A stretch of DNA of 64,000 nucleotides from Acidobacteriota bacterium (GCA_965217775.1 CBDCJH010000002.1:32001-96000); one strand, 5' to 3'. Counted from the first letter of the stretch, positions 1-25,601 are shown. Program-made: numbers and translations. The notes: generated from the sequence alone by a model not told the origin.

Positions 1-1956
1 CGCACTGTGCGTCCGGCTCGCGTTCCGATTGGCGCTGTCCCGGATCGTGCCGCCGTTGAGCGACAGCGCGTTCTCGGCAATGCTCACCCCATCCGTATCG
101 GTTTCGTCGGTGGCCACCTCGTAGGAAAACGTCACGGCATTGCGCGCCACTCCTTGATACGACGCCTGGCGCGTGTTGCTCTCCACCATCAGCCCGAGTT
201 GCGGCGACCCCGTCACAATGACCGTCTTGTCAAAGCGCACCGTGGCTTCGATCTCCTCGCCCACCGCATATCCACCGCCAGGGTCCGAGGTCAGCGACAC
301 GCTCAGGACGCTCGGGGCGCCGGTCACGGTATCGTTGTCGGTCAGCATGACCGTGGCGGTGGCCGGGCTGCCTGCACTCACGCCGCCGGGCAGCAGATAG
401 CCCAGGGTCAGGGTCACGGTCTCATCGTCATCGTCCACGGCATCGTCGACGGCCGTGACGGTGAAGGTCTTTTCGGTCTCGTTCGCAGCGAAGGACACGC
501 TGGCCGGTACGGTGTAGTCGGACGCTGCGGCGCCGGTGGTACTCGTTGCCGTGACCGGAATGTCAATCGCGCGGCTGGGCTCGTCGCTCACGCGGACCGT
601 CACGGTCGCCGTGATTCCACCCTCGGTTGCGGTGTATGTCTCGGCATCAAAGGACACCGTGATCGCCGGCGCGCTCCGGTAGTTCGCCACGTAGCCGCGC
701 GTCCGGTTGAGCATTCGCACCGCATCGGACGGACCGTCGGCGCCCGGTGACGGATCGAGGCCGGCCTTGCCCAGGGGGTCGCCGCCGGGATCGGGATAGA
801 TCTGATCCGGATTCGAGAAGCGGAGAATTTGCGAGCATCGGCCGCACTGGTTGGGGTACGCCATGATGGTACGCCAGAAGGCGGTGTCGGGTGCGCCCGG
901 CTCCAGCGCCTCCTGGTTGACGTAGCCAAAGGCGTATGGAAACCGCGTGAAACCGCCGCAGTTGCTGCCGCAGACCTGGTACCGGTCATGGCGGACACCC
1001 ATGATGTGGCCCAGTTCGTGCGCGAATGTAGGGGCGGAGTAAGCATTGACCGCGCCAAAGGCAGAAGATTCGGAGCTTGTTGACGGGACATTTAGCTGGT
1101 ACGCGCGGCCTGATTGCCCGGCGGCTATCAGCAGTACGATGTCCGCGGCAACCTCATCGCGAATGTCGTGGATCTCGTCCATATATCCATCCGACGTCGA
1201 GCGCAGACGACCGACATCTATGGCCAAATCGTTGGTCTCCCTGTATCCCACCACTTCCTCGGCCGCTACCAAGTTGATGCGCTGATTCGCGCCGCTGTTG
1301 CTGTAGGCCATGTTGGTCTCCGCGACCATGAGGTCGATCGCGGTCGCGATCGCGTCAGTCCCACCCACGTTCTCCCGGGCAGCCGACGTGTAAAAGACCG
1401 CCACGTCAATCACCGACTGCTCGGCCGACGGACAGATCAGGCCGCTGAAGGTGATTGTGGACAGCCACGTTTGAAAGGTGTCATCCCCCGGCGCGCAGAG
1501 TTCGGTCTTCTCGATGTTCACGGTCTCCAGGTCGGACAGCTCGCGCAGACCGTCAGGAAGTGATCCGGTCAATGCCCGGCTCTCGCTGAGGAGCAGGGAC
1601 GTGAGATTGGTCAGGTTGGCCAACTCCGACGGGAGGGCGCCGCTGAGAGCGTTGTCTTGCAAATCCAACTGTTCGAGCTCGCTCAGGTCGCCCAACGCCG
1701 TCGGTAGCGTCCCGTCCAAACCATTGCCGTTCAGCACCAGGGCCGTGACGCGCCCGTCACTGTTGGTGGTCACGCCGGACCATGAAGACAGCGGCTCCGT
1801 GCTCGTCCAGTTGGTATTGGTCGTCCAGTTCGCACCGTCCGTGGCGTTGTAGAGCGCGGTCAGAGCAGCCTTGTCGGTGGCGACGGAGTTCTGGGCATGG
1901 ACGTGGCCTGCCACACCGAAGGGGAGCACGAAAAGGAGAACTCGAAAGAGGCGCAT
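1..1956 (-). CDS. Large secreted LRR + M12/reprolysin-like zinc metalloprotease with Calx-beta and Ig-like repeats; runs off the left edge (not in ORF track)
   Basis: Hand-translated from ATG at 1956: MRLFRVLLFVLPFGVAGHVHAQ signal peptide, LRR N-cap DKAALTALYNATDGANW, zinc motif HELGHIMGVRH (988-1020), Met-turn TIMAY. Frame stays open to base 1. Clear paralog of 16405..24987. Confidence 0.88.
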   Translation of the reverse strand, partial: MRLFRVLLFVLPFGVAGHVHAQNSVATDKAALTALYNATDGANWTTNTNWTSTEPLSSWSGVTTNSDGRVTALVLNGNGLDGTLPTALGDLSELEQLDLQDNALSGALPSELANLTNLTSLLLSESRALTGSLPDGLRELSDLETVNIEKTELCAPGDDTFQTWLSTITFSGLICPSAEQSVIDVAVFYTSAARENVGGTDAIATAIDLMVAETNMAYSNSGANQRINLVAAEEVVGYRETNDLAIDVGRLRSTSDGYMDEIHDIRDEVAADIVLLIAAGQSGRAYQLNVPSTSSESSAFGAVNAYSAPTFAHELGHIMGVRHDRYQVCGSNCGGFTRFPYAFGYVNQEALEPGAPDTAFWRTIMAYPNQCGRCSQILRFSNPDQIYPDPGGDPLGKAGLDPSPGADGPSDAVRMLNRTRGYVANYRSAPAITVSFDAETYTATEGGITATVTVRVSDEPSRAIDIPVTATSTTGAAASDYTVPASVSFAANETEKTFTVTAVDDAVDDDDETVTLTLGYLLPGGVSAGSPATATVMLTDNDTVTGAPSVLSVSLTSDPGGGYAVGEEIEATVRFDKTVIVTGSPQLGLMVESNTRQASYQGVARNAVTFSYEVATDETDTDGVSIAENALSLNGGTIRDSANRNASRTHSA

Positions 1957-1996
1957 GAAGTTTGCAAGCGCGATCAGCCCTCCGGCCACCGCGTCC

Positions 1997-2596
1997 TCAG
2001 GGCACGTCGCCGGTTCCGGAATCGGGCTCCACCACGTCACATTCGAGCGGCGGCTCCTCGACCTCGCTGATGGCGTAAAGTCCGCCGCCCACCGATCGAA
2101 TCCGGTATGTGCCACCCAGCGTCCTCACCGTGCCAGCGACCGTCTCGCCGTTGACGACGAGGGTCAGCGTGCCCACCGGCTCACCCACCACCCGGCCGGA
2201 GATCGAATAACCGCCCGAAAACGTCGGCGCGGTCCGTTCGACGATCCCGGTGAACACGATGTCCTCGAACAGATTCAGAGTCAGGGTTCCATCCTTTCCG
2301 GGCTCCACATCACGCTGGGGACGACGCGGGGACACAGTCTTGGTGTGAACACGGGAGTGGGGGAAAACGGAGGCGGCTGCCCGGGCGCGCTGCAGCCGTT
2401 CCAAGTCCATCGTCACCAACCGACGGCGGACCGTTATGGCATCGAGCGCGGCCGGCACAGGCGAATCCAGCTGCGCCTCCACAGGATCGATGGGGGAAAA
2501 GAGGCCGTCGCGCTGGGCCGCGACGGCTGGGGCGGGCGACCAGACCAGCCATAGGACAGAGACTGCTGTGACATACTGCGCACTTGGCCACGACAT
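1997..2596 (-). CDS. Secreted stand-alone M12 metalloprotease pro-domain-like protein
   Basis: AGGAGG RBS, signal peptide, TLNLFEDIVFTGIVERTAPTFSGGYSISGR...YRIRS...EEPPLEC segment resembling the N-terminal pro-region of bacterial reprolysin-like proteases. Paralog at 25017..25601. Confidence 0.75.
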   Translation of the reverse strand: MSWPSAQYVTAVSVLWLVWSPAPAVAAQRDGLFSPIDPVEAQLDSPVPAALDAITVRRRLVTMDLERLQRARAAASVFPHSRVHTKTVSPRRPQRDVEPGKDGTLTLNLFEDIVFTGIVERTAPTFSGGYSISGRVVGEPVGTLTLVVNGETVAGTVRTLGGTYRIRSVGGGLYAISEVEEPPLECDVVEPDSGTGDVP

Positions 2597-3100
2597 GGAA
2601 CGGTCCTCCTTTCCTTGATGCCTCGGCCCCTAAGCCGAACTTCTCACCAAGGAGCGGGATAATCGCGCAAAACCGGGGTTGGCAACCAGGATCACCATCA
2701 TGCGAGCATCATGGAGTCGCTGTGACGCGATAGGGAAACTTCATCTGGTCGCTATCGGGCTATTTTTATCACTTTCGGATGACATGGCTTGTGGGTTGGT
2801 GCTCCGAGAGGATGAACACCTCAGCCGGAATGGGCTCACCGGGTGGGGAAAGAAGAGGGTGGAAAAGCGCCCGGACGGCGCAGGAAACAGGGCGTCAGAG
2901 GTCTTCGATAGGGTCCAATAAGCTCAACTTATCGGACCCTATTCCCTCTTGGCGGCGTCTGACCCATTTTCTGACCCGTGTTTCTCCGGCGGTTTGGAGC
3001 TGAATCGCTTCCCTCGGCATCCTCCCCTTTTTCCGGTAGAGCATCCTTTAATTTCAGATAACAGACGTCGACCGGGGTACTCATAGATACAGAGAGATCG

Positions 3101-6100
3101 TTACCGCTGAACCGGCACCACCGGCAGGGTCGTGAAGATCTGGTTGCCGGTGTCCAGCTCCACCGCCACTCCGGTGAACATCCCGTCTCCAACTGCCGTA
3201 CACCGGACCGACCCGACGAAGTCGGTCGTGTCCGTCCTCGTGAACACCTCTTCGATGAACCGGGCATTTTGCCCATTGCCGTCGAGACGTATGTCCACCT
3301 GCTCCAGCTCCTCACCCTGGCTCATCAACCGGCACCGCACCAGGGTCCGCTGTGGCTCCAGATTCCGGATGGCCGCCGCCGTGCGGATTCTTCCCGCCTG
3401 CCGCCGGGCTGGGAACAGGGCGTCGGTCAAGGGTTGACTGGCGCCGACCCCGGCCACGCCGACGCCCGGGATGTCAAATCGCAGGACACCGCCGATGGGA
3501 CCCGTGGACACGACTTGCACCGAGCCCGTGACGACCTCTCCCCGCCCATGCGTCGAGATCGTCAACTCACCCAGGCGAGCGATCGCGGTTCGGACGGTCA
3601 GACTTCCGTCGCCTCGCACCACCAGATCCTCCCCGACATCCACCATCGATTCCGGGTCCAGAAGATCGCCCGCCCGATCATAGAAGTAGATGGCCGGCCG
3701 GGCCGTTGACGCCGCCACGTTCACCAGCACCAGGTCGGAGGTGATCAAGGTTCCGTCGGCGGAAGTGCCATTGGCGAAGTGCGCGAAAGTCAGGGTCGTT
3801 GCTTCCTGCTCGCCACCCATCGGCTCCACGGGAACCACCGGCAGAGTGGTGAAGATCCGGTTGTCCGAATCCAGCTCCACCGCCACTCCCGTGAACGACT
3901 CACCGGCCGGGACCGTACAACGCACCGACCCCACGAAGTCCGTGGTGTCGGTCTCCGTGAACACTTCCTCGAGGAACTGCGCATCCTGGCCGTTCGCGCT
4001 GAGTTTGATCTCCCCCTCTTCCAGCACCCTGCCGTCCTTCATCAATCGGCACTGCACGTCGACGGCCTCCATTCCCAGGTTGTGGATGGCCGCCGCGGTG
4101 CGGATCCCGCCCTCCTGCCGCCGGGCCGGGAACAGGGCGTCCGCCGTGGGTTCGCTGGCGCCGACTCCGGCCACCCCGATCCCGGGGATGTCGAAGCGGA
4201 CCACTCCGCCGATGGGGCCGTCCGACACGACCCGGACCGACCCCGTCACCACCTCTCCCCGGCCGTGGGTCGAGATCGTCAGCTCGCCCAGCGACGCGAC
4301 CTCTGTCCGGGGCGACAGCCCTCCGTCGTCCCGGATCTCCAGATCGTCTCCGACATCCACCACGGACTCGGCTTCAAACAGATCTCCCTCCCCGTCGAAG
4401 AAGTAGACGGCGGGACGAATCTCCGACTCGGCGACGTTCACCAGCACCAGGTCGGAGGTGATGAGGACATCGTTGCCCGAGACCCCGTTTCCGAAATGGG
4501 CGAACTCCAGGATCACCTCCTCGGCCATGGGCGTGGTCTCGACCGGGCTGGAGGGAGGACTTGGACCGACCGAATTCACCGCCCGCACCTCGAAAACGTA
4601 GGTCCGGCCGTTGGTCAGTCCAGTGACCGTATGGGTCAGGTCCGTGGAACCGGTGGAGATCCACTCCCCGGCCCGGTCGATCCGGACCTCGTAGCCGGTG
4701 AGGGCGGAGCGGCCGTCGCTCTCGGGGGCCTCCCAGGAGAGAGTCACTTCACGGTCCCCGGATTCTGCCTGCAGGTTCAATGCTGCCGTGGGCACAGTCG
4801 CAGCCGGCGGCGGTGGTGGCGGAGGCGGCGGCGGCGGTGGTGGCGGAGGCGGAGGAGGAGGAGGCGGAGGAGGAGGAGGCGGAGGGGGAGGAGGAGGTGG
4901 CGGCGGGGCCGAGACTTCGTTGTCCTGGACCGTGACCCGGGCGCTCTGAGTCGAAGTGGGTCCCAGCCGGTACTCGGCTCCCGGCTGCAGCCGGGCGGTG
5001 ACCCGGCTGGTGGATTCGGCGACGTCGTCATCGTCGGTCAACACCTCCAACGTCGCCGTGTCCTGTCCGCCCTGGAACCGAACCTCCTTCGGCGGATCGT
5101 ACCCGCCCGAGGTCTCGATCATCGATCTCGTCTCCGTGACCTCCAGGCTCACCGTCAGCGAGGCCTCCGTCGGGGGTCCCCGCGTCAGCGTGAACTCCAC
5201 GGTCTCGCCTTCCGTCACCGTCTCCGATCCTTGCTTGGCCTGGATGGTGACCAGCGGCGGGTCCGCCCGTTGATCGGTCAACGCGTCCACGGCGTTGCCC
5301 ACCTCGTCCTGGATCGGGTTGAATCCCGGCGTGTAGCTGACCATTACGGTTTCGCCCGCTGTCACCGTTGAGGCCAACGCCAAGATGACACTGTTTCCGC
5401 TCACCCTAACCTGGACCACCGTTCGATCGTTTCCCGCCACCGTGACCGCGAAGTCAGAACTCGCTGGCGTCGAGCTATCATCCAACGGCTCGTCATAGTT
5501 GAGGGCAACCTGCAAGCCATGTACCGCCACGCTCTCCAGATCCGGCTCGCTCGTGTCCACCTTGTGGTCCGGCTTCGTCTCCACCGCCTCGTAGCTCCGC
5601 CCCGCCGGGTTGTCCGCCAGATCCAGGATCTTCCCCCCGTTGAGCGCGATGCTTCCCCGCGGAACGCTCACTCCGTCGTTGTCCTCGTCTCCCTTCTCCA
5701 CCGTGTAGACGAATACCACTGCGGCCCGGGCGGAACCCGTGCTGGCACTCGCCCGCTTCCGCCGGGCCCCCACCAGCAGGTCCAGCGTCGGCGTCCCCCG
5801 CACCGTGTCCAGCGTCACCGTCTCGTCGTACCGCACTGTCACCGAGATCATGTCTCCAATGGCGTACGTCTCGTCCGTCCCCGGGTCCGAGCTGATCTCG
5901 ATCGCTTCGATCGATGGGGCCGTCGTGTCCGGCGTCTGGTTGTCGACGAACTCGTCCCTGAAGGCTTCGGCATCGTTTCCGATCGCATCCTGAATCGGAT
6001 TCGATCGCGACTCGTAGCTCACCCGGATGCCTGTCTCTCCGTGCTCCGTTGACGGACTAACCGTCAGCCGAACCGTGCTCCCGGTCACCTGAACCCGAGT

Positions 6101-9100
6101 CACGGTGCGCGTCTCGTTGCCTCCCGCCACGGTGAAGTCGCTGGTCGCCGGCCGCGAAGAGGTGTTGAGCGTTTCGTTGTAGGTCAGCGTCAGCGTCGCG
6201 CCGTTGACCACCGCCGGATCGGTCATTGCCAGGACCGGGGCTACCGCGTCTACCTTGTGGCTCGAATTGTCCGCCACGGGGTCGTGGTCCAGCATGGCGT
6301 CATTGCCCGCGCCGTCGCGAATCGTTCCTCCGCCTCGCGACAGCTGGTTCGCCTCGATGCTCACCCCGTCCTCGTCGTTGTCGCCCGTGACCACCTGATA
6401 GGCGAACTTCACCGCCCGGCTCGAGACGCTTTTGTACTCCGCCATTCGGTTGCGGCCGCCCAGGTTCAACGTCAATTCGGGCGTTCCGGTGATCACCACC
6501 GTTTCGTCGAACGTCACCGTCACCTCGATGGTCTCGTCCACGCCGTAGGTCCGATCCGACCCCGCACTGGAGGTGATCCGAACCGTCGACACGGTCGGCC
6601 CCGTCGTGTCTCCCGTCTTGTTCGTGACGCTCTTGTTGCTCAACTGGTCCGCGTCGTTGCCGGCCGTGTCCTGAATCGGACTCGGCCCCGGCTGATAGTT
6701 CACCCGAAGGCCGCTCTCTCCGTTCGTAACTGCTGGGCTCAGCGTCAGGAACACCGCGCTTCCGCTGACCCGGACTCCGGTGACCGTCCGCGTCTCACTC
6801 CCTCCCGTCACGGTGAAGTCGTCCGCCGACGGGACCGAAGAGGAATCCAGCGGCTCGCCGTAGGCCAGCGTCAGCGTCGTGCCGCTGGCCACCGCCCCGT
6901 CGGACGTTGCCAGCGCCGGCTTGATGCCATCCACCTTGTGCTGGGAATCGGCCGCCACCGGCGCGTGGTTCAGCACGGCGTTATTCTGTGCGCCGTCGCG
7001 GATCGTCCCGCCGGACAAACGGTTCGCCTCGATACTCACTCCGTAGGCGGCGCTGTCGCCCGAGACCACCTTGTATTCGAACCTCACGGCTCCGCCTGTG
7101 ACGTTTCGATAGTTCGCCGTTCGACTCCGGCCGCCCAGGTTCAACGTCAGCCGGGGTGTCCCTGTCACCAGGACGGTTTCGTTGAACGTGACCGTCACTT
7201 CGATCGTCTCGCCGGCCGCATAGGTCGTATCCGGCCCCGCATTCGAGGTGATCCTCATCGTTTCCACAATTGGCCCCGTTGTATCTCCCGTGTGGTTGGT
7301 GACGCTCTGATTGCTCAGAGCGTCTGCGGCATTGCCCACCACGTCCCGGATTGGATTCCCTCCCGGCTGATAGCTCAACAGGAGACCGCTCTCTCCGTCT
7401 TGCACTGGGTGACTGAGCGTCAAGAAAACACCGCTCCCGCTCACCTGGACCCGGGTGGCCGTTCGTGCCTCGTTCCCTCCGGTCAAAGTGAAAGCGCTCG
7501 TTGCCGGCCTTGATGATGAGTTCAACGGCTCGCTGTAGGCCAGCGTCAGCGTCGTCCCGTTCACAACTGCCCCGTCGGTGGCCGCGAGACTGGGCTTGAC
7601 CCCATCCACCATGTGCCGCGAATTGGCCGCCACCGCTGCGTGGTCCAGGACCGCGTTATTCTGGGCACCGTCTCGGATCGTCCCGCCGCCTCCAGACAGA
7701 TGGCTCGACTCGATGCTCACCCCATCGTCGTCGCTGTCCCCCGCAACTACCCGGTAGGCGAATTTCATCGCCTTGCTCATGACGCCTTGGAAGTTCGCTG
7801 TTCGGCTCCGGCCGCCCAGGTTCAACGTCAAACGTGGAGTCCCCGTCACCACCACCGTTTCGCTGAACGTCACCGTCACTTCGATGGTGTCGTCCACACC
7901 GTAGGTCCGGTCCGATCCCGCACTGGAGGTGATCCGAACCGTCGACACGGTCGGCCCCGTCGTGTCCCCCGTCTTGTTCGTGACGCTCCGATTGCCCAAT
8001 CGGTCCGCATCGTTGCCGGCCGTGTCCTGAATCGGGTTCGAACCGGGCTGGTAGTTCACCCGCAGGCTGCTCTCTCCTTCCGTTACTGCCGCACTCAGGG
8101 TCAGAAAGACGGCGCTTCCGCTCACTCGGACTCCAGTGACCGTCCGCGTTTCACTCCCGCCCGTCACCGTGAAGTCATCCGGCGACGGTACCGAAGAGGA
8201 GTCCAGTGGCTCGCCGTAGGCCAGCGTCAGCATCGTCCCGTTGGCGATCGCCCCTTCGGTGGTCGCCAGGACGGGTTTGATCCCATCCACCTTGTGCTGG
8301 GCGTGTGCCGCCACCGCTACGTGGTCCAGGACCGCGTTATTCTGGGCACCGTCTCGGATCGTGCCCCCGGACAGGCGATTCGCCTCGATACTCACCCCGT
8401 ATGTGGCACTGTCACCCGAGACCACCTTGTATCTGAACCTCACGGCACCGCCCGTGACGTTCAGGTAGTTCGCCGTGCGGCTCCGGCCGCCCAAGTTCAA
8501 CGTCAGCCGCGGTGTCCCTGTCACTACGACGGTCTCGCTAAACGTGACCGTTGCCTCGATCGTCTCGCCGGCCGCGTAGGTCATATCCGACCCCGCATTC
8601 GAGGTGATCCGCATCGCCGCCACCACCGGTCCCATCGTGTCTCCCGTGTGGTTCGCAACACTCTGATTGTTCAGAGCATCTGCGGCATTGCCCACCATGT
8701 CCCGGATCGGATTCCCTCCCGGCTGATAGCTCAACTCGAAACCGCTCTCTCCATCTTGCACTGGGGGACTCAACGTCAGTAAAATAGCGCTCCCGCTCAC
8801 CTGGACCCGGGTGACCGTTCGGGCCTCATTTCCTCCCGTCACGTTGAAGGCGCTCGTTGCCGGTCTTGACGACGAGTTCAACGGTTCACTGTAGGCCAGC
8901 GTCAACGTCGTCCCATTCACAACTGCCCCGTCGGTAGCTGCCAAGCTGGGCTTGACCCCATCCACCGTGTGCCGTGAATCGGGCGCCACCGCCGCGTGAT
9001 CCAGCGTGGCGTCATTCCGCGCACCGTCTCGGATCATCCCGGTCCCTAACGACAGACGGCTCGACTCGATGCTCACGCCATCCTCATCGCTGTCCCCGGA

Positions 9101-16328: not shown

Positions 16329-16404
16329 TCCACCCGAACCGCCCTCACCGGGGGCGACCGGGGGATTCAGGGAGGGGATCGTCGGTCCGACTACTCTCGG
16401 CGGG

Positions 16405-19400
16405 TCATCTTTGAATCGGCACTACCGGCAGCGTGGTGAAGATCCGGTTGCCCCTATCCAGCTCCACCGCGACTCCCGTGAACAGGCCTTCCCCGAGAGC
16501 CGTGCATCTCACCGATCCGACGAAGTTTCGCGTATCCGTCCTGGTGAAGACCTCTTCGATGAACCGGGCATGCTGTCCGTGGGCGTCGAGGCGGATGTCC
16601 GCCTCTTCCAGGGGCTCGCCCCCGCTCATCAACCGGCACCGCACCGTTGCGCGCTGCGCCGCCAGGTTGCGGATCGCCGCCGCGGTGCGGATTCCGGCTG
16701 CTTGACGCCGCGCCGGAAACAGGGCGTCCGTCGTGGGTTGACTCGCTCCCACGCCGGCGACGCCGATGCCGGGGATGTCGAAGCGCAGGACGCCGCCGAT
16801 GGGTCCGTTCGCCAGCACCCGCACCGATCCCGTCACCACCTCTCCCCGGCCGTGGGTCGAGATCGTCAACTCGCCCAGACGGGCCATGGCCGTTCGAACC
16901 GTCAAGCCTCCGTCCTCTCGGACCAGAAGGTCGTCTCCGACGTCCACCATTGATTCCGGCTCCAACAGTTCTCCGCGCTGATCGTAAAAGTAGATGGCGG
17001 GACGGGCGGTCGAGGCGGCCACGTTCACCAGCACCAGGTCCGACGTGATCAAGGTCCCGTCGCCGGAAGTTCCATTGGCGAAATGGGCGAAGGTCAGGGT
17101 CGTTTCCTGGTCTTCGGCAGCCTCCGGGCCGATCGGCACCACCGGCAGGGTGGTGAAGATCCGGTTGCCCGCATCCAGCTCCACCGCCACCCCCGTGAAC
17201 GACTCACCGGCCGGGACCGTACAACGCACCGACCCCACGAAGTCGGTGGTGTCGGTCGCGGTGAACAGCTCCTCGATGAACTGGGCGGCCTGGCCGTTGG
17301 CGCTCAACGGGATCTCCCCCTCTTCCAGCACACTGCCGTTCCTCATCAATCGACACTGCACCTTCACCGCTTCCGGGCCCAGGTTGTGGATGGCCGCCGC
17401 GGTGCGGATCCCGCCCTCCTGCCGCCGGGCCGGGAACAGGGCGTCCGCCGTGGGTTCGCTGGCGCCGACTCCGGCGACGCCGATTCCGGGGATGTCGAAG
17501 CGGACCAGTCCGCCCATGGGGCCGTCCGACACGACCCGGACCGATCCCGTCACCACCTCTCCCCGGCCGTGGGTCGAGATCGTCAGCTCGCCCAGCGACG
17601 CGACCTCCGTCCGGGGCGACAGCCCTCCGTCCTCCCGGATCTCCAGATCCTCCCCGGCATCCACCACGGATTCGGCTTCAAACAGATCTCCGTTCCCGTC
17701 GAAGAAATAGATGACCGGACGGATCTCTTCTTCGGAGACGTTCACTAGCACGAGGTCGGAGGTGATGAGGACGTCGTTGCCCGAGACCCCGTTTCCGAAG
17801 TGGGCGAACTCCAGGATCACCTCCTCCACCATGGGCGTGGCCTCGACCGCGTCGGAGGGAGGACTTGGCCCGACTGAGTTCACCGCCCGCACCTCGAAGA
17901 CGTAGGTCCGGCCGTTGGTCAGTCTGGTGACGGTGTAGGTCAGGTCCGTGGAACCGATGGAGGTCCAGTCCCCGGCCCGGTCGATCCGGACCTGGTAGCC
18001 GGTGAGGGCGGAGCGCCCGTCGCTCGCAGGCACATCCCAGGTCAGCGTCACTTCACCGTCCCCGGCTTCTGCCTGCAGGTTCAACGGTGCCGTGGGCACA
18101 GTCGCAGCCGGAGGCGGTGGCGGCGGCGGCGGTGGCGGAGGCGGTGGCGGCGGCGGCGGTGGTGGCGGCGGTGGAGGAGGAGGTGGTGGGGGCGGGGCCG
18201 AGACTTCGTTGTCCTGGACCGTCACCCGGGCGCTCCGGGTCGAGGTCGGTCCCAGCCGGTACTCGGCTCCCGGCTGCAGCCGGGCGGTGACCCGGCTGGT
18301 GGATTCGGCGACGTCGTCATCGTCGGTCAACACCTCCAACGTCGCCGTGTCCTGTCCGCCCTGGAACCGAACCTCCTTCGGCGGATCGTACCCGCCCGAG
18401 GTCTCGATCATCGATCTTGTCTCCGTGACCTCCAGGCTCACCGTCAGCGAGGCCTCCGTCGGGGGTCCCCGCGTCAGCGTGAACTCCACGGTCTCGCCTT
18501 CCGTCACCGTCTCGGATCCCTCCTTGGCCTGGATGGTCACCAGGGGCGGGTCCGCGCGTTGATCGGTCAACCCATCCACGGCGTTGCCCGCCTCATCCTG
18601 GATCGGGTCGAGACCGGGTGTATAGCTCACCCTTACCGTCTCGCCCGCCGTCACAGGAGCGGTCAGCCTCAAGATGACACTGTTTCCGCTCACCCGGACC
18701 TGGACCACCGTTCGATCATCCCCGGCCATCGTGACCTCGAAGTCAGAGCTCGACGGTGTCGAGCTCTCATCCAGCGCCTCGTCGTAGGTCAGCGCCACCC
18801 GCGAGCCATGCACGGTCACGCCCTCCAATCCCGGCACGCTCGCGTCCACCTTGTGGTCCGGCTTCGTCTCCACCGCTTCGTAACTCCGCGCCGCCGGGTT
18901 GCCCGACAGATCCAGGATCTTTCCTCCATTGAGCGCGATGCTCCCCCGCGGGACGCTCACGCCGTCCTCGTCCTCGTCTCCCTTCTCCACCGTGTAGACG
19001 AACATCACCGCCGGCCGGTCCGGCCCTACACTGGCGCTGGCCCGCTTTCTCCGGGTCCCCACCAGTAAATCCAACGTCGGCGTTCCGCGAATGGTGTCCA
19101 CCGTCACCGTCTCGTCGTACCGCACTGTCACCGAGATCATGTCGTCGACCGCGTAGGTCTCGTCCGTCCCCGGGTCCGAGCTGATCTCGATCCCTTCGAT
19201 CGACGGGGCCGTGGTGTCCGGCGTCCGGTTGTCTACGAACTGGTCCCTGAACGCTTCGGCATCGTTGCCGATCGCATCCTGGATCGGGTTCGATCGCGGC
19301 TCGTAGCTCATCCGGATCCCCGTCTCTCCGTGTTCCGCCGCCGGGTTCACCGTAAGACGAACCGTGCTTCCGCTCACCTGAACCCGGGTCACGGTGCGCG

Positions 19401-22400
19401 TCTCATTGCCTCCCTCCACGGTGAAGTCACTCGTCGCCGGCCGCGAAGAGGTGTTGAGCGGTTCGTTGTAGGCCAGCGTCAGTGTCGCGCCGTTGACCAC
19501 CACCGGATCGGTGAGTGCCAGCAACGGGGCGACCGCGTCCACCTTGTGGCTCGAACTGGGCGCCAGCGCGTCATGGTCCAGCACGGCGTCATTGCCGGCG
19601 CCGTCGCGGATCGTCCCGCCGCTTCGCGACAGCCGGTTCTCCTCGAGGCTCACTCCGTCCTCGTCGGTGTCACCAGTGACCACCCGGTAGGCGAACTTCA
19701 TCGCCCGGTTCGAGACGCTCCTGTATTCCGCCGTTCGATTGCGGCCGCCCACGTCCAGGGTCAGTTCGGGCGTTCCGGTGATCACCACGGTCTCGTCGAA
19801 CGTCACCGTCACCTCGATGGTCTCGTCCACACCGTAGGTCCGGTCCGACCCCGCATTTGAGGTGATCCGAACCCTTGACACGGCCGGTCCCGTCGTGTCT
19901 CCCGTCCGGTTCGTGACGCTCTTGTTGCTCAACCGGTCCGCGTCGTTGCCTGCGGTGTCCTGAATCGGATTCGATCCCGGCTCATAGTTCACCCGAAGGC
20001 GGCTCTCTCCATCCGCGACGGCCGAGCTCAGCGTCAGGAACGCCGCGCTTCCGCTGACCCGGACGCCGGTAACCGTCCGCGTCTCACTCCCGCCTGTCAC
20101 GGTGAAGTCGTCCGTCGCCGGCACCGGAGAGGAATCCAACGGCTCGCCGTACGCCAGCGTCAGCGTCCCCCCGTTTACGACAGCTCCGTCGCTGCTCGCC
20201 AGCGTCGGCTTGACCCCATCCACCTGGTGCCGGGAATCGGCCGCCACCGGCGCGTGGTTCCGCACGGCGTCGTTCCGGGCACCGTCCCGGATCGTGCCGC
20301 CCGACAGGCGATTCGCATCGATGCTCACCCCGTAGGCGGCACTGTCGCCGGAGACCACCTGGTATTCGAATCTCACGGCCGCTCCCGCGACGTCCCGGTA
20401 GTTGGCCGTCCGGCTGCGGCCGCCCACGTTCAGCGTCAACTGCGGCGTCCGCATCACCACCACCGTCTCGTTGAAGGTCACCGTCACTTCGATGGTCTCG
20501 CCGGCTGCGTAGGTCCGGTCCGACCCCGCATTCGAGGTGATCCTCACCGTCTCCACTGTCGGACCCGTCGAATCCCCCGTGTTGTTGGTGACCGGTCGGT
20601 TGTTCAGCTCGTCCGCGGCGTTGCCCACCCCGTCACGGATTGGATTCGATCCCGGCTGGTAGCTCAACCGGAGGCCGCTCTCTCCGCTCTGTACGACCGG
20701 ACTCAAGGTCAGGAATACCGCGTTCCCGCTCACCGACACCCTCGTCACCGTTCGCGTCTCATTGCCCCCCGTCACGGTGAAGGCGCTCGTCGCCGGCCGA
20801 GAGGACGAGTTCAACGGCTCGCTGTAGGCCAGCGTCAGCGTCGCCCCGTTCACCACCGCCCCGTCGCTGCTCGCCAGGCTGGGTTTGACTCCGTCCACCT
20901 GGTGCCGCGAATCGGGCGCCACCGCCGCATGGTCCAGCATCGCGGTATTGCCCGCGCCATCGCGGATCGTCCCTCCACTTCCAGACAGTCGGTTCGACTC
21001 GATGCTCACCCCGTCTTCGTCGCTGTCCCCCGAAACCACCCGGTAGGCGAACTTCGCCGCCTTGCTCGTAACGCCTCGGAAGTTCGCAGTTCGACTTCGA
21101 CCGCCCAGGTTCAGGGTCACCTGCGGTGTCCCCGTCACCACTACCGTCTCGTTGAACGTCACCGTCACCTCGATGTCATCGTCCACGGCATATGTCGAAT
21201 CCGATCCGGCACTCGAGGTGATCCGAACCGTCGACACCGTCGGTCCCGTCGTGTCCCCCGTCCGGTTGTTGACGCTCTTGTTGCTCAACCGGTCCGCATC
21301 GTTGCCCGCCGTGTCCTGAATCGGATCCGATCCCAGTTGGTAGTTCACCCGCAGGCCGCTCTCTCCATCCGCGACGGCCGAGCTCAGCGTCAGGAACACC
21401 GCGCTTCCGCTGACCCGGACCCCGGTGACCGTCCGAGTCTCACTTCCCCCCGTCACCGTGAAGTCGTCCGTCGCCGGCACCGAAGAGGGATCCAACGGCT
21501 CGCCGTAGGCCAGCGTCAGCGTCGTCCCATTGGCCACCGCCCCGTCGCTGCTCGCCAATGTGGGCTTGATCCCGTCCACCTGGTGCCGCGCATCGGCCGC
21601 CACCGCCGCGTGGCCCAAGGTGGCGTCATTCCGGGCGCCGTCGCGGATCGTCCCCGCTCCGCGCGACAGGCTGTCCGCATCGATGCTCACCCCGTACGGG
21701 GCCGTGTCGCCCGAGACCACCTGGTATTCGAACCTCACGGCCGCCCCTGTGACGTCCTGGTAGTTGGCTGTCCGGCTGCGTCCTCCCACGTTCAATGTCA
21801 ACCGCGGCGTCCCCGTCACCACCACCGTCGCACTGAAAGTCACCGTCACTTCGATGGTCTCGCCGGCCGCGTAGGTGGTATCCGACCCTGCATTCGAGGT
21901 GATCCTCACCGTCTCCACGGTCGGCCCCGTCGTGTCTCCCGTGACGTTGGTGACCGGCCGGTTGCTCAACCGGTCCCCGTCGTTCCCCGCCGTGTCCTGG
22001 ATCGGGTTCGCTCCCGTCCCCGTCGGCACCGTGTAGCTCACCCGGAGGCCCGTCTCCCCGTTCTCCACCGCTGGAGTCAGGGTCAGCTCCACCGAGTTCC
22101 CGCTCACCCGGACTCCGGTGACCGTCCTCGTCTCGCTCCCCCCCGTCACGGCGAAAGCATCGTTCCCCGGCACCGAGGATGTGTCCAACGGCTCACTGTA
22201 GGCCAGCGTCAGCATCGTTCCGTTGGCGACCGCCCCGTCGGGGCTCGCCAGTACGGGTTTGATGCCATCCACCTTCTGTCCGGTGTCGGCCGCCACCGCC
22301 GAATGGGCCCGGACGGCATGGTTCCGTGCGGTGTCCCGGATCGTCCCGCCGGACAGGCTGTTCGCCTCGATGCTCACTCCGTCCGTGTCGCTGTCGCTGG

Positions 22401-24987
22401 TGGCTGCGGCGTAGGCGAACAGCACCACCGCACCCGTGACACTCTCGTAGCTCGCCGATCGGTTCCGTTCTCCTACCTTCAGCGTCACCCGTGGGGACCC
22501 GGACACCGTGACGGTCTCGCTGAAGGTCACCGTGACCTCGATCTCATCGCCGATGCCGTAGACGTCCCGGCCGTCCGGGGGATCCGACGTGATCTCCACC
22601 GAGATGACCGTCGGTGGGATCCGGTCCGGAGTCTGGTTCGTCACCGGCTCGCTGCTCAGTCCGTCCGCATCATTGCCCACCCGGTCCTGAATCGGCGTCG
22701 CCCCCATCCCGGTCGGAACCGTGTAGTTCACCCGGATCCCTGTCTCCCAATGCGCCACTGTGGAAGAGAGAGTGAGTTGCACCGTATTCTCGCTCACCGT
22801 GACTCCGGAAACGGTCCGTGACGAAGCGCCCCCCGACACGGAGAAGGCGCTGGACGGCGGCCTCGAAGACGAGTCCAGCGGCTCGGTATAGGTCAGCGTC
22901 AGCGTCGCCCCATTCACCACGGCCCCGCTCATCGCCGCCAACTCCGGCCTGGTGCCCTCGACCTTGTGCCGCGAATTGTTCCCTAACGCACCATGATCCC
23001 GGTTGGCATCGTTGTCGGACCCGTCCCGGATCATGCCCCCGTTCAGCGACAGGCTATCCGCTGAGATGCTCACCCCGTTATCATCGTTGTCGCCGTTGGC
23101 AATTGTGTAGACGAACCGCACAACTTCGCCTGCACTGTCTCGATAGGTTGCCTGACGGGTGACGTTTCCCACGGTCAGACCGATTTGCGGCGATCCTGAC
23201 ACCGTGACGGTCTTGTTGAACCCCACGGTGACCTCGATCTCGTCACCAATTGTGTAAAACCCGTCAGGCCTCGATTCAGAGGTTATTTCCACCGTGAGGA
23301 TGCTTGGAGCGCCCGACACTACGTCGTTATCGGTCAAATTCACAATGGTCATGGTCGGGTTGCTAGTTGTCACTCCCCTCGGCAGCGGCTCACCGAAGGC
23401 CAAGGTGACAGACTCGCCGTCATCATCGGCAGTGTCGTTCTCCGCCGTCACGGTGAGGGTGCCCTCGGTATCATAAAAAATCGTTACCGAGTCCGGCACG
23501 GTGTAGTCAGAGGGCGTGGCACCGGTCGTGGGCATCGACATGATCGGTATAACGATTGGACGGGTAGGCACGTCACTCAGTTTCACCGTTACGGTTGCTA
23601 CAGTGCCATCTTCGGTGGCCGTGTACTGTGCGGCACCGAAGGACACTGTAATAGCGGGAGCCTGGAAGAAATTCGCCACATAGCGGCGTGTGCGGTTCAG
23701 GGCGCGGGACGCGTCGGACGGGCCTGTGATTTCATCAGTGAGGCTAAAGCCGGCAATACCCATGGGATCGCCCTCATAGGTGCGATCGGGACTTGAAAAG
23801 TACGGCACCTCTGTGCAGGAAATGCCCGATGCAACACACTGATCATCGTAGGACATGATCGTGTACCAACGGGCGGATGCCTGCGCGTTCTGCTCGAGCG
23901 CTCGCTGGTTTACATAGCCGTATGCATAGGGGAAAGGATGGGGTTGACACCCCGTGTTGAACCTGCACGCGGCATACCGATCGTGACCCAAACCCATGTT
24001 ATGGCCAACTTCGTGGGCGAAAATTAAGTCAGGGCTCAATATGTCAACGTAGGCATAGGCATAGTACCCAAAGTTCCCTGTCAGCAATTGATCCATCGTT
24101 GATATTCCCTGGGCGCTGTTATAGGCAAATGTGGTGCTGCGGTCCCTGCGGATCAGCATGACGATATCTGCGGCAACCCGTAAGCGGATGTCCTGGACCT
24201 CGTCCATATGGCCGTCGTCTTTCGTGCGGAATCGAGTGAAATCAATCTGCCTCGTCTCTTCCGTGTAGGCCACTTCCTCCACCGCAACAAGCGAAACGCG
24301 CTGATTCACGCCGCTGTTCGTGTACGCCATGTTGGCAGTCGCGACCATGAGATCGATCGCGTCCCTGATCGCAGTGGTCCCCCCTTCAGTGTCCCTTGCG
24401 CGAGGTGTGTAGAAAACTGCCATGTCGATCACCGACTGAGCAGAAGGTGGACAGATCAACCCGCTGAACGAAATCGTTCGCAGCCACGTTTGAAAGGCGT
24501 CGTCTCCCGGAGCGCAGAGCTCGGTGTCACGTATCTGCACGGTCTCCAGGCTGGATAGCTCACGCAGACCGTCAGGAAGTGTTCCGGTCAATGCCCGGCT
24601 CTCGTTGAGGAGCAGGGTGGTGAGGTTAGTCAGGTTGGCCAGTTCCGACGGCAGAGCACCGCTCAGAGCATTGTCCTGTAAATCCAACTGTTCCAGCTCG
24701 CTCAGGTCGCCGAGCGACGCCGCCATCGTGCCGTCCAGGCCATTGTCGTTCAGTACTAGGGCCGTGACGCGTCCGTCACCGTTGGTCGTCACGCCGTACC
24801 ATGAGGACAGCGGCTCCTCGCTCGCCCAGTTGGTATTGGTCGTCCAGTTCGCGCCGTCCGTGGCGTTGTAGAGCACCACCAGCGCAGCCTTGTCCGTGGT
24901 GACGGAGGTTTGGGCATGGACGTGGTCTGCCACACCCAGTGGCAGGACAAAAAGGAGAACCCGCTGGAGATACGTGAAGTTTGGCAA
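16405..24987 (-). CDS. Giant (2860 aa) secreted LRR + M12/reprolysin metalloprotease with Calx-beta, 7 Ig/SwmB-type repeat pairs, poly-Pro, FN3 and two C-terminal FAHF domains
   Basis: Signal peptide ...VHA-Q, LRRs (LEQLDLQDNALSGALPSEL), HEVGHNMGLGH (23983-24015), Met-turn TIMSY. C-terminal ~1900 aa collinear with 3101..16183. Confidence 0.9.
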   Translation of the reverse strand: MPNFTYLQRVLLFVLPLGVADHVHAQTSVTTDKAALVVLYNATDGANWTTNTNWASEEPLSSWYGVTTNGDGRVTALVLNDNGLDGTMAASLGDLSELEQLDLQDNALSGALPSELANLTNLTTLLLNESRALTGTLPDGLRELSSLETVQIRDTELCAPGDDAFQTWLRTISFSGLICPPSAQSVIDMAVFYTPRARDTEGGTTAIRDAIDLMVATANMAYTNSGVNQRVSLVAVEEVAYTEETRQIDFTRFRTKDDGHMDEVQDIRLRVAADIVMLIRRDRSTTFAYNSAQGISTMDQLLTGNFGYYAYAYVDILSPDLIFAHEVGHNMGLGHDRYAACRFNTGCQPHPFPYAYGYVNQRALEQNAQASARWYTIMSYDDQCVASGISCTEVPYFSSPDRTYEGDPMGIAGFSLTDEITGPSDASRALNRTRRYVANFFQAPAITVSFGAAQYTATEDGTVATVTVKLSDVPTRPIVIPIMSMPTTGATPSDYTVPDSVTIFYDTEGTLTVTAENDTADDDGESVTLAFGEPLPRGVTTSNPTMTIVNLTDNDVVSGAPSILTVEITSESRPDGFYTIGDEIEVTVGFNKTVTVSGSPQIGLTVGNVTRQATYRDSAGEVVRFVYTIANGDNDDNGVSISADSLSLNGGMIRDGSDNDANRDHGALGNNSRHKVEGTRPELAAMSGAVVNGATLTLTYTEPLDSSSRPPSSAFSVSGGASSRTVSGVTVSENTVQLTLSSTVAHWETGIRVNYTVPTGMGATPIQDRVGNDADGLSSEPVTNQTPDRIPPTVISVEITSDPPDGRDVYGIGDEIEVTVTFSETVTVSGSPRVTLKVGERNRSASYESVTGAVVLFAYAAATSDSDTDGVSIEANSLSGGTIRDTARNHAVRAHSAVAADTGQKVDGIKPVLASPDGAVANGTMLTLAYSEPLDTSSVPGNDAFAVTGGSETRTVTGVRVSGNSVELTLTPAVENGETGLRVSYTVPTGTGANPIQDTAGNDGDRLSNRPVTNVTGDTTGPTVETVRITSNAGSDTTYAAGETIEVTVTFSATVVVTGTPRLTLNVGGRSRTANYQDVTGAAVRFEYQVVSGDTAPYGVSIDADSLSRGAGTIRDGARNDATLGHAAVAADARHQVDGIKPTLASSDGAVANGTTLTLAYGEPLDPSSVPATDDFTVTGGSETRTVTGVRVSGSAVFLTLSSAVADGESGLRVNYQLGSDPIQDTAGNDADRLSNKSVNNRTGDTTGPTVSTVRITSSAGSDSTYAVDDDIEVTVTFNETVVVTGTPQVTLNLGGRSRTANFRGVTSKAAKFAYRVVSGDSDEDGVSIESNRLSGSGGTIRDGAGNTAMLDHAAVAPDSRHQVDGVKPSLASSDGAVVNGATLTLAYSEPLNSSSRPATSAFTVTGGNETRTVTRVSVSGNAVFLTLSPVVQSGESGLRLSYQPGSNPIRDGVGNAADELNNRPVTNNTGDSTGPTVETVRITSNAGSDRTYAAGETIEVTVTFNETVVVMRTPQLTLNVGGRSRTANYRDVAGAAVRFEYQVVSGDSAAYGVSIDANRLSGGTIRDGARNDAVRNHAPVAADSRHQVDGVKPTLASSDGAVVNGGTLTLAYGEPLDSSPVPATDDFTVTGGSETRTVTGVRVSGSAAFLTLSSAVADGESRLRVNYEPGSNPIQDTAGNDADRLSNKSVTNRTGDTTGPAVSRVRITSNAGSDRTYGVDETIEVTVTFDETVVITGTPELTLDVGGRNRTAEYRSVSNRAMKFAYRVVTGDTDEDGVSLEENRLSRSGGTIRDGAGNDAVLDHDALAPSSSHKVDAVAPLLALTDPVVVNGATLTLAYNEPLNTSSRPATSDFTVEGGNETRTVTRVQVSGSTVRLTVNPAAEHGETGIRMSYEPRSNPIQDAIGNDAEAFRDQFVDNRTPDTTAPSIEGIEISSDPGTDETYAVDDMISVTVRYDETVTVDTIRGTPTLDLLVGTRRKRASASVGPDRPAVMFVYTVEKGDEDEDGVSVPRGSIALNGGKILDLSGNPAARSYEAVETKPDHKVDASVPGLEGVTVHGSRVALTYDEALDESSTPSSSDFEVTMAGDDRTVVQVRVSGNSVILRLTAPVTAGETVRVSYTPGLDPIQDEAGNAVDGLTDQRADPPLVTIQAKEGSETVTEGETVEFTLTRGPPTEASLTVSLEVTETRSMIETSGGYDPPKEVRFQGGQDTATLEVLTDDDDVAESTSRVTARLQPGAEYRLGPTSTRSARVTVQDNEVSAPPPPPPPPPPPPPPPPPPPPPPPPPPPPPAATVPTAPLNLQAEAGDGEVTLTWDVPASDGRSALTGYQVRIDRAGDWTSIGSTDLTYTVTRLTNGRTYVFEVRAVNSVGPSPPSDAVEATPMVEEVILEFAHFGNGVSGNDVLITSDLVLVNVSEEEIRPVIYFFDGNGDLFEAESVVDAGEDLEIREDGGLSPRTEVASLGELTISTHGRGEVVTGSVRVVSDGPMGGLVRFDIPGIGVAGVGASEPTADALFPARRQEGGIRTAAAIHNLGPEAVKVQCRLMRNGSVLEEGEIPLSANGQAAQFIEELFTATDTTDFVGSVRCTVPAGESFTGVAVELDAGNRIFTTLPVVPIGPEAAEDQETTLTFAHFANGTSGDGTLITSDLVLVNVAASTARPAIYFYDQRGELLEPESMVDVGDDLLVREDGGLTVRTAMARLGELTISTHGRGEVVTGSVRVLANGPIGGVLRFDIPGIGVAGVGASQPTTDALFPARRQAAGIRTAAAIRNLAAQRATVRCRLMSGGEPLEEADIRLDAHGQHARFIEEVFTRTDTRNFVGSVRCTALGEGLFTGVAVELDRGNRIFTTLPVVPIQR
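18109..18195 (-). repeat. Poly-proline tract (29 Pro)
   Basis: CCN codon run at the position equivalent to 4805-4906. Confidence 0.95.
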
Positions 24988-25016
24988 ATGCGATCAGCCC
25001 TCCGGCTGCCGCGTCC

Positions 25017-25601
25017 TCAGGGCTCGGCGCCGGTCTCGGATTGGGGCCCCTCCACCTCACATTTGAACGGCGTCTCCTCGACCTCGCTGATAGCGCACTG
25101 CCCCCGGCCGACGGACCGGATGCGGTAGGTTCCGCCGAGCGTCCGCACCGTGCCGGCGACCGTCTCGCCGTTGACGACAATCGTCAGCGTGCCCAGCGGT
25201 TCGCCAGCGAGGCGGCCCGAGATCGAGTAGCCGCCGGAAAAGGTCGGCGCTGTCCACTCCGCGATCCCTGTGAACACGACGTCCTCGAACAGGTTCACGA
25301 TCAGGGTTGCATCCGCTGCAGGCGCCGCGTCACGATTGCCGCTGGAAGGGGAGACCGCTTTGGTGCTAACGAAGGGGCGGGGGAGCACATCTGCGGCCGC
25401 CCTAGCTCGGTGGAGCTGTTCCAGGTCAATCGTCACCAACCGGTGACGTACTATTGTGGCATCGTGGGAGGTAAGCACGGGGGAATCCAAGTGCTCTGCT
25501 GGTCGATTGACCGTGGAAAAGAGACCGTCGCGCTGGACCCCAATCGCAGGAGGCACCAGCCCCATCACGCCGATGACCGAAACTGCTATTGTCCATGCCA
25601 T
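25017..25601 (-). CDS. Secreted stand-alone M12 pro-domain-like protein (paralog of 1997..2596)
   Basis: Start placed at ATG 25601 (AAGGAGA RBS; MAWTIAVSVIGVMGLV signal peptide). Ends ...SEVEETPFKCEVEGPQSETGAEP. Confidence 0.75.
   Translation of the reverse strand: MAWTIAVSVIGVMGLVPPAIGVQRDGLFSTVNRPAEHLDSPVLTSHDATIVRHRLVTIDLEQLHRARAAADVLPRPFVSTKAVSPSSGNRDAAPAADATLIVNLFEDVVFTGIAEWTAPTFSGGYSISGRLAGEPLGTLTIVVNGETVAGTVRTLGGTYRIRSVGRGQCAISEVEETPFKCEVEGPQSETGAEP

Follow-up and report, generated by a model that had tools for sequence, protein, structure and literature searches.

The window analyzed in this study is a stretch of 64,000 nucleotides (G000:C2:32001-96000) from the 6.43-Mb, 98%-complete genome of an Acidobacteriota bacterium (GCA_965217775.1). 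Its first 25.6 kb is occupied by three co-oriented giant open reading frames (ORFs) on the minus strand, designated A, B and C, each of which displays the following structural features: (i) an N-terminal head, (ii) a repetitive stalk, (iii) a connector that includes a run of prolines, and (iv) a C-terminal tail made up of two copies of a domain that we call FAHF. The three genes turned out to belong to a genome-wide family of giants in which stalk and tail evolve in concert while the heads differ. With regard to function, we propose, with a probability of roughly 0.5, that the giants are Sec-exported proteins held by a glycan-binding tail, so that their heads would be displayed on the stalk.

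Three giant genes at the locus

Domain assignments for A, B and C were obtained from Pfam and NCBIfam scans, B being scanned as cut-out pieces as well. An initial annotation, made from the sequence of the window, had described three adjacent giants, and all three ORFs were recovered (Table 1). It had also placed an LRR region and a metzincin on two of them and a subtilase with GLUG repeats on the third; Pfam is in agreement with this, as evidenced by LRR-metzincin heads on A and C and a subtilase-like head on B. The Ig/SwmB-type repeats which it had attributed to all of them correspond in A, B and C to SWM_repeat together with an unnamed Ig-like domain, and the shared end, described as Calx-beta, poly-proline, FN3 and double FAHF, is likewise present in the three proteins, with the tail-side Calx-like domain being sub-threshold (14.6 bits vs a cut-off of 27). 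Over the C-terminal ~2070 residues the three are 78-82% identical to one another, compared to 41-62% over the heads, and the tails of B and C share a 448-nt tract of identical DNA.

Gene C runs off the edge of the window, and beyond that point it continues with a GLUG region (E 1.4e-15 in Pfam, outside the view of the initial annotation), six further stalk units, the connector and the tail. Its probable start is Met54 (window position 1956), and that of B is probably Met35 (16081). The ~545 nt located 5' of gene C resemble the upstream regions of the metzincin-type genes A and K, with 77% identity to A over 696 nt (150 nt of ORF included) and 76% to K. In gene B, the best GLUG match was localized to 11897-11968 (Glug, E 2.5e-5), and the propeptide region was named by eye from its usual position. 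The truncated S8-like copy at the N-terminus of B is 48% identical to the full one over 163 amino acids (aa), has a Thr at the Asp position and is missing the beta insert.

The head-stalk junction of A is bridged by single short-read contigs, with 0-8 differences, in four public runs from three studies, one of which runs may be the source sample of the window assembly itself. In these four runs, hundreds of contigs pile up on the stalk repeats of A (window 20800-22900) at 90-95% likeness, and the summed contig depth on the stalk reaches 50-100 times the value for the unique head, which means that those communities contain the stalk unit in very many copies.

Table 1. Coordinates of the giant genes, their parts and a further FAHF-bearing ORF in the window
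Feature	Position	Strand	Content
Gene A	16405-24987	-	2860 aa
Gene B	3101-16183	-	4360 aa
Gene C	1-2115 in the window, running off its edge; whole gene C2:24096-34115	-	3339 aa
Gene C, N-terminal 705 codons	1-2115	-	signal peptide, LRR, reprolysin-like metzincin (HELGHIMGVRHD), Calx-beta, first stalk unit
Spacer between B and C	2116-3100	-	
Gene B, tail	T2 3104-3805, T1 3800-4522	-	two FAHF domains, 98-99% identical to the tail of C
Gene B, connector	4523-5233	-	Calx-like domain (sub-threshold), 34 prolines, FN3
Gene B, stalk	5234-10693	-	8 Ig+SWM units of ~227 aa
Gene B, distal head	10694-12793	-	cadherin-like Big_9 (weak), GLUG region, FN3-like segments
Gene B, S8-like head	12794-14506	-	propeptide-position region and subtilase-clan domain with inserted beta domain
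Gene B, lone stalk unit	14507-15202	-	sits between two S8-like domains
Gene B, N-terminus	15203-16183	-	signal peptide, truncated degenerate S8-like copy
Gene A, tail	16408-17826	-	two FAHF domains
Gene A, connector	17827-18522	-	Calx-like domain (98% identical to that of B), 29 prolines, FN3
Gene A, stalk	18523-23307	-	7 Ig+SWM units
Gene A, head	23308-24987	-	signal peptide, LRR, reprolysin-like metzincin (HEVGHNMGLGHD), Calx-beta
Gene A, upstream region	24988-25601	-	similar to the upstream regions of C and K
Single-FAHF ORF	30226-31107	+	293 codons, no signal peptide

A genome-wide family of giants with diverse heads

A census of the whole genome, taken by tblastn with the tail and then with hidden Markov models (HMMs) of the stalk unit and the tail, identified 29 FAHF-bearing ORFs. 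In place of the three-gene protease array of the initial annotation there are thus 13 giants (A to M) and 16 smaller ORFs distributed over the genome. The giants measure 2201-6245 aa and add up to 159,120 nt, or 2.47% of the genome, and each of them possesses 5-9 stalk units, a connector and a double tail. On contig C2 they form four groups, namely the A-C trio, two isolated genes (0.71 and 1.24 Mb), a pair (2.08 Mb) and a row of six (2.53-2.62 Mb).

An LRR-metzincin-Calx head is found in A, C and K, and an S8-like plus GLUG head in B, D, H, I, J and L, with J containing, in addition, Calx/LapA, Spond_N and cadherin domains and a GSDH propeller. The head of M consists of GSDH, cadherin, fn3 and Big_9 domains and an arylsulfotransferase-like (ASST) propeller. 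Those of F and G are made up of ~500 aa lacking a Pfam match followed by PPDK_N, and that of E comprises 362 aa, also lacking a match; in L, too, the first 700 aa gave nothing in Pfam, as did the first 500 aa of F and G and the head of E. On the smaller ORFs, the heads are Cache, LRR, metallopeptidase, trypsin+PPC+CARDB, fn3 or NHL. The notion that every head is a protease was therefore not sustained, since many are GSDH, Spond_N, cadherin, ASST, PPDK_N, LRR, NHL or Cache and some of the protease heads are degenerate (K, I, J and the first copy in B). Most of the FAHF-bearing ORFs start with a Sec-type N-terminus, recognized by eye alone as a basic stretch, then a hydrophobic one, then an AxA-like site. 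Four of the 16 smaller ORFs (177-303 aa), among them the one at 30226-31107, have no signal peptide and look like remnants.

Two observations on individual members are worth recording. In F and G (L004 and L005; C2:2076201-2094777), the PPDK_N domain (pyruvate phosphate dikinase, AMP/ATP-binding, E 3e-23) is located behind a signal peptide and 500 family-less residues, and such a nucleotide-binding domain is odd on an exported stalk protein. In two trypsin+PPC proteins (L012 and L013; C2:3650003-3667323) the FAHF pair is internal; one protein extends beyond it by 380 aa (PKD-like), the other by 1660 aa of CARDB/DUF11 repeats.

Stalk and connector

The stalk unit of ~227 aa is composed of an Ig-like domain, for which no Pfam match was obtained, followed by SWM_repeat. 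The latter (PF13753) was identified in A with an E-value of 5e-88 (290 bits, seven stretches) and in B with an E-value of 4e-101 (332 bits, nine stretches), the cut-off being 27, and swm_rep_I (TIGR02059) scored 176 and 215 bits in A and B (cut-off 40.1; E 1e-52 to 1e-64). Within the connector of the giants, the order is a Calx-like domain, 24-38 prolines and FN3; in A, B and C the prolines number 28-34, and fn3 was matched at E 1e-12 to 8e-16. We estimate that the rigid-looking stalk, of 10-18 Ig-size domains, would measure some tens of nanometres and the proline rod ~10 nm.

Mosaic history and concerted evolution

To compare the modules, the common C-terminal ~1840 residues of the 13 giants were aligned and maximum-likelihood trees were constructed for five modules. 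The trees contain conflicting, well-supported clades. The Calx-like module is 98% identical between A and B, 94% between F and M and 77% between F and G; for T2, the values are 98% for B-C, 97% for F-G, 84% for A-B and 89% for F-M. In the distal stalk units, the groupings are C with D, and A with B. The initial annotation had suggested domain-wise phylogenies as a check, and the histories of stalk and tail are indeed incongruent (p from 4e-6 to 7e-58). By the approximately unbiased (AU) test, the clade (F,G) was rejected for Calx with p 7e-58 and (F,M) for T2 with p 4e-6; rejected as well were (B,C) for stalk units U-5 to U-3 (p 8e-10) and (A,B) for T2 (p 6e-9). The significance of these values is inflated, if not by that many orders, because the clades were named after the trees had been seen. 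Mosaics found by scanning the DNA in codon-aligned windows agree with the tests: between B and C, identity is 95-100% in the final ~2 kb and 66-88% in the stalk, and between F and M, whose genes are separated by 0.5 Mb, it reaches 99% in a single 300-nt window.

Identity is 51-62% among the metzincin heads of A, C and K, and 90-94% among the tails of A, K, H, L and F, irrespective of the head that they follow. In two other species (L021 and L024), an LRR-metzincin head is found on six stalk units; the tails of these genes share 75-77% identity with the tails of A, K, H, L and F, and 79-81% with the tails of B and C. Likeness of the tails within the genome regardless of head, together with a lower likeness to same-head genes elsewhere, is characteristic of concerted evolution through gene conversion.

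The same data bear on the view that no common mechanism is at work and that the giants represent an ordinary expansion of adhesin-like paralogues, with C-terminal halves that are similar as a result of recent duplication. The tandem arrays (the trio of this window, the six genes at C2:2.53-2.62 Mb and the pair at 2.08 Mb) and the occurrence of the same architectures in related species would be expected from such an expansion, and giant Ig-repeat proteins are common in bacteria. However, duplication cannot yield heads of 51-62% identity on tails of 90-94%, nor conflicting trees of adjacent modules, and the tail is also found on 16 unrelated smaller ORFs of this genome and on thousands of proteins elsewhere. 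Since the module incongruence already contradicts it, we regard a plain expansion as very improbable.

Further layouts on stalk and tail were observed in other genomes, namely S8+GLUG in L027 and Spond_N+GSDH+cadherin+ASST in L040, L047, L052 and L075. Because layouts recur in other species, the head-stalk-tail combinations are old and the heads fairly stable. Hence, of the mix-and-match system proposed in the initial annotation, the part that stands is the presence of different heads on a shared stalk/tail cassette, and the part that does not is fast head swapping. Present-day exchange is mostly of stalk and tail sequence, by gene conversion. The family provides a clear bacterial case of concerted evolution, in which a ~6-kb stalk and tail cassette is uniform over 13 dispersed genes with diverging heads.

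Distribution and position of the tail

The FAHF domain is ~235 aa in length, with FAHF(A/G)NG at the start and IFTTLPVVP at the end, and the pair that makes up the tail ~470 aa; no match to the tail was obtained in Pfam or NCBIfam. The tail is, however, widespread in metagenomes. When HMMER was run over 1.84 billion representatives of clusters at 50% identity, 1313 tail clusters were retrieved at E<=1e-3 and 327 at 1e-30. A word-seeded protein search, in which 8000 candidates were scored, yielded 2359 tail proteins (411-2000 aa) at E<=1e-3. Among the 120 listed, none is named, and the heads are LRR, NHL, WD40, trypsin/PPC/CARDB, astacin, matrixin, fn3, cadherin, SWM, GSDH/spondin, S8+GLUG and PPDK_N.

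For the genomic context, one genome per species in GTDB was searched, which gave 186 tail-encoding stretches; 67 loci were retained, and 64 of the 67 come from records titled Acidobacteriota or Terriglobia metagenome-assembled genomes. Profile searches, in which the unpublished genome G016 was included, detected the tail in all 41 searched genomes of the window's order, with 1-52 domain matches each and the highest number in the window's own genome, and in 23 genomes of a sample of 251 across the phylum, 19 of these 23 belonging to the order. The tail is hence restricted to one order as far as these counts go. It is double in 60 of the 67 loci and ends no more than 22 residues from the C-terminus in 61; between 200 and 1660 residues follow it in two of the 29 ORFs of this genome and in six of the 67 loci elsewhere. 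The recurrent neighbours of tail genes in the 67 loci were further tail genes, antisense artefacts and a transposase, and nothing else.

A position and a distribution of this kind could be those of a sorting or secretion handle. According to this alternative, the double FAHF tail would be recognized, and perhaps removed, by a dedicated order-specific machine, as happens to the C-terminal domain (CTD) of type IX secretion system (T9SS) cargo or to PEP-CTERM, and its conservation would reflect its fit to that machine. The near-terminal location in 61 of the 67 loci is consistent with such a role, as are the restriction to the order with 1-52 domain copies per genome, the very diverse Sec-exported cargo, and the finding that the tail is the most conserved and most homogenized part of the proteins. 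Work on sponge microbiomes, in its available text, reports eukaryote-like repeat, cadherin and FN3 proteins to be enriched in Acidobacteriota and notes no classical secretion route for them (PMC8163846). On the other hand, no PorV match was found in the 98%-complete genome (the control was positive), and no SprA match either, the latter being a weak blank as its control was positive in no genome; a 470-aa module is far above the size of known sorting signals; and the tail is internal in some proteins, has no conserved neighbour gene and folds as a ligand-binding sandwich. Altogether, we consider a sorting handle unlikely.

A bolder version of that alternative, which is as doubtful in our opinion, would make the double FAHF module the address tag of an undescribed, order-specific surface-display or secretion pathway, performing a job like that of the T9SS CTD in Bacteroidota and built from sugar-binding sandwiches. 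The tag would carry all the exported eukaryote-like repeat proteins (LRR, NHL, WD40, FN3 and cadherin) of these bacteria together with their matrix enzymes, and genome-wide gene conversion would keep every tag fitted to one receptor. If this were true, and if the bacteria are animal symbionts, the pathway could provide the route to the host that has been missing for their eukaryote-like proteins.

Predicted fold of the tail

An AlphaFold2 (AF2) model of the tail, built with 36 paralogous and homologous copies, had a predicted local distance difference test (pLDDT) score of 93.5, and the FAHF domain in it consists of two beta-sandwiches. By structural alignment, the second sandwich (residues 124-234) superimposes on TM1070 (1nc7) with a Z of 13.3 and a root-mean-square deviation of 2.5 A over 106 of 116 residues, and on ASRT, the transducer for sensory rhodopsin in Anabaena (2ii7), with a Z of 10.1; the next match had a Z of 7.0. 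This sandwich has eight strands, and a nearly invariant Asn residue, N148, ends the strand formed by residues 140-148. A Foldseek comparison of the tail model with the PDB returned low-scoring matches only (template modelling score 0.2; WxLIP and viral jelly rolls). The nearest named protein-atlas clusters to the tail carry DUF5719 or ASRT, and the DUF5719 profile (PF18986) scored 15.7 bits, in the most divergent FAHF ORF only. Two invariant cysteines in FAHF fit an extracellular domain.

The ASRAH superfamily was defined around ASRT and TM1070 by De Souza, Iyer and Aravind (2009), who predicted sugar binding for it. According to that article (PMC2739507), extracellular ASRAH domains are carried by secreted amidases and by surface lipoproteins of actinobacteria, an Asn that follows strand 2 is conserved, and the domains are arranged in dyads or tetrads. 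The surface lipoproteins are probably those of DUF5719 (PF18986). Based on the modelled fold, the tail is probably a distant relative of the ASRAH domains and, like them, a putative sugar-binding module. We also considered each FAHF unit to be an internal duplication, which would amount to four ASRAH domains per tail; this idea was left unsupported, as the halves were without homology by hhalign.

Sugar binding would also be compatible with a tail that serves as an adhesive tip on host or environmental glycans. In that case, released enzymes or adhesins would be tethered to their substrate matrix and the bacterium would not be the anchor, a situation that can be likened to carbohydrate-binding modules on secreted glycosidases. 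The ASRT/TM1070-like fold with its published sugar-binding prediction would suit an adhesive tip, and so would the eukaryote-type matrix domains in the heads (Spond_N, cadherin, FN3, LRR and NHL) and the cleavable-looking signal peptides, no membrane anchor having been seen. A substrate-binding module, however, should vary with the substrate of the head, and here one homogenized tail serves all heads; furthermore, the most sensible role for the long stalk and the proline rod is to keep a distance from a surface. For these reasons an adhesive tip appears distinctly unlikely to us.

Metzincin and S8-like heads

In A and C, Pfam identified LRR_8 (E 4e-5 and 2e-6) and the Reprolysin_4, Reprolysin_5 and Reprolysin_3 families (E 1e-11 to 3e-12). 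The corresponding reprolysin profiles PF13583, PF13688 and PF13582 scored 45.1, 43.8 and 35.6 bits in A and 40.6, 47.5 and 29.2 bits in C, all of which pass the cut-offs of 22-27. The zinc motif HExxHxxGxxH(D) is intact in A (HEVGHNMGLGHD) and C (HELGHIMGVRHD), and is degenerate in K (L009; C2:2577561-2588882), which reads HQLGHLMGLAQD (HQLGH...Q) instead of HExxHxxGxxHD. Approximately 50-60 residues downstream of the zinc motif, inspection of the translations by eye revealed TIMSY in A and TIMAY in C, which may be the Met-turn.

The S8-like head of B presents a less regular picture. Peptidase_S8 was detected in a cut-out piece of B at 46.8 bits (cut-off 21.8; E 3e-12), covering profile positions 74-266 only, and is absent from the Pfam listing for the whole protein. 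When aligned by profile with solved structures, the Ser motif GTSASAPH of B coincides with the Ser helix of mirolase (E 7e-12), AprV2 and subtilisin, and the catalytic Ser is invariant in all 26 aligned S8-like sequences. The HGTH motif is absent from this head; EGT(AM) stands at the expected place, in a region that no PDB alignment covers, and its Glu is invariant in the same 26 members. The Asp motif is SDG in B, D, H and L, with Asn in I and J (L007 and L008), and the Asp position is less than 90% conserved among the 26 homologues. A phmmer search of the PDB with this domain produced no match, so that only the profile reached the subtilases. The AF2 model of the domain had a pLDDT of 63.5, which is too poor for active-site geometry, and it matches the folds of CspB, Tk-SP and subtilisin at the fold level only.

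A protein search for this S8-like family (window 12794-14266; homologues P0277-P0396) gave 3778 matches at E<=1e-3 among 8000 candidates scored. PF00082 is present on most of the 120 listed, a few of which bear a name, either subtilase/S8 or hypothetical protein. Possibly the family is a branch of the subtilases whose catalytic residues are arranged differently; the Ser/Glu pair of the sedolisins would be an analogy only.

How the tail may hold and display the heads

Our preferred proposal, in which the tail holds the protein at the cell, involves the following steps. The giants would be exported by the Sec pathway and would then leave the periplasm by a further route across the outer membrane; a GspD-like secretin is encoded in the genome (329 bits). 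The tail would hold the protein by binding a polysaccharide, which most likely belongs to the envelope or matrix of the cell itself. With the tail oriented toward the cell, the poly-proline rod and the stalk would keep the head tens of nanometres off, where it could cleave or bind matrix components. Display at a distance from the cell and an action on host matrix, as put forward in the initial annotation, are likewise inferred. Gene conversion among the dispersed copies would keep stalk and tail uniform while the heads diverge, and therefore the whole repertoire would stay fitted to one common tail partner.

A number of observations weigh against this proposal. With respect to the fold, the case for sugar binding consists of a modelled fold likeness and a published prediction; the first FAHF sandwich gave generic matches only (Z about 6), and the N- and C-terminal halves of FAHF showed no likeness in hhalign (E 0.11 over 10 columns). 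Moreover, PF07100, the ASRT profile, did not match the tails at E<=1, and its one match in the whole genome, of 15 bits, lies away from them. With respect to position, residues are present beyond the tail in some proteins, and the tail is therefore not strictly terminal. As for the gene neighbourhoods, no glycosyltransferase, secretion or anchoring gene is conserved beside the tail genes in the 67 loci, and no secretion or anchoring genes were found in the window between 25 and 64 kb. Concerning the heads, K, I and J are predicted pseudo-enzymes, and several heads look inactive from their motifs; given that B has no canonical His motif and a poor AF2 model, protease display is no more than putative even for B. 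The inflated significance of the AU tests has to be added to this list.

A tail that proved to act as an anchor or as a sorting tag would explain how enzymes and eukaryote-like repeat proteins are brought to the surroundings of the cell. The FAHF module marks the exported, and probably surface-displayed, proteome of an uncultured lineage, and the question of what the tail binds makes it a concrete experimental handle.

The rest of the window

The single-FAHF ORF at 30226-31107 is probably the remnant of a tail-bearing gene. It is located near a DDE transposase fragment (26923-27354, minus strand; PF13751, E 4e-23), in surroundings of low coding density where the GC content dips to 0.56 at 28-30 kb and to 0.55 at 34-36 kb. 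Further along the window, a gene on the minus strand (43861-46422) encodes a PSCyt2/PSD1 (DUF1549/DUF1553) protein with a Big_2 domain, and adjoining it are ORFs of 600-890 codons lacking a Pfam match (37908-40589, 40641-42452 and 46419-48395). On the minus strand at 51117-54523 and 59516-60808, two enolase-superfamily (MR_MLE) genes flank a gene of the DHDPS family, with a BNR/sialidase-like gene close by; this region looks like one for sugar-acid catabolism.

Comparison with known systems

The stalk has its closest counterpart in the SwmB-type proteins of marine Synechococcus, which contain the same SWM_repeat/swm_rep_I found so strongly in the stalk units and are, like the giants, very long, repetitive and extracellular. 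Only the repeat is common to both, and there is no motility context here. SwmB is not known to have enzyme heads, nor a counterpart of the Ig-like partner domain, of the poly-Pro/FN3 connector or of the tail built from FAHF.

Surface proteins that are sorted by their C-terminus include the LPXTG proteinases PrtP and ScpA, T9SS cargo such as the gingipains and SprB, and the PEP-CTERM proteins. The giants resemble them in having a Sec signal, a variable head, Pro-rich spacers and a constant C-terminal module common to many cargos. Variable N-terminal cargo on a constant C-terminal module is the usual arrangement in LPXTG, T9SS CTD and PEP-CTERM proteins, and the display logic, which the initial annotation had described as the reverse of that of polymorphic toxins, is for that reason not new. 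The FAHF module differs from these signals in being a 470-aa folded pair with no transmembrane segment, and none of the LPXTG, PEP-CTERM and T9SS tail models was among the NCBIfam matches.

RTX/BAP-type adhesins (LapA, SiiE and MpIBP) share with the giants an Ig-like extender, Calx/LapA-like domains and ligand-binding modules at one end. RTX adhesins, being type I secretion substrates, lack a signal peptide; their retention module is N-terminal and their RTX repeats are C-terminal. The giants, in contrast, have signal peptides, and no RTX repeat family turned up in the Pfam scans. For the LRR-metzincin proteins A and C, a partial match to Mep72 (NF052434) was obtained at E 1e-21 to 1e-23; at 77-84 bits against a cut-off of 645, they are not equivalogs of it.

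With the ASRAH domains (PF07100), the C-terminal half of FAHF shares the superposition, the eight strands, the Asn after strand 2 and the pairing. FAHF differs in its extra N-terminal sandwich and in the failure of PF07100 to match it, and the context of a tail on giant proteins does not appear in the available text of PMC2739507.

The combination as a whole, which the initial annotation did not recognize as a described system, has so far remained so: there is no Pfam or NCBIfam model for the tail, no paper on the tail or on the layout was found, and neither a description of the family nor a mention of DUF5719 was found in the literature searched, in which few subscription journals were represented. 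The SwmB stalk repeat was already known, and the heads belong to ordinary families except for the unusual S8-like group. What these comparisons leave as new is the unnamed order-specific tail, its pairing with a shared 1,800-residue stalk cassette, and the demonstrable concerted evolution of that cassette.

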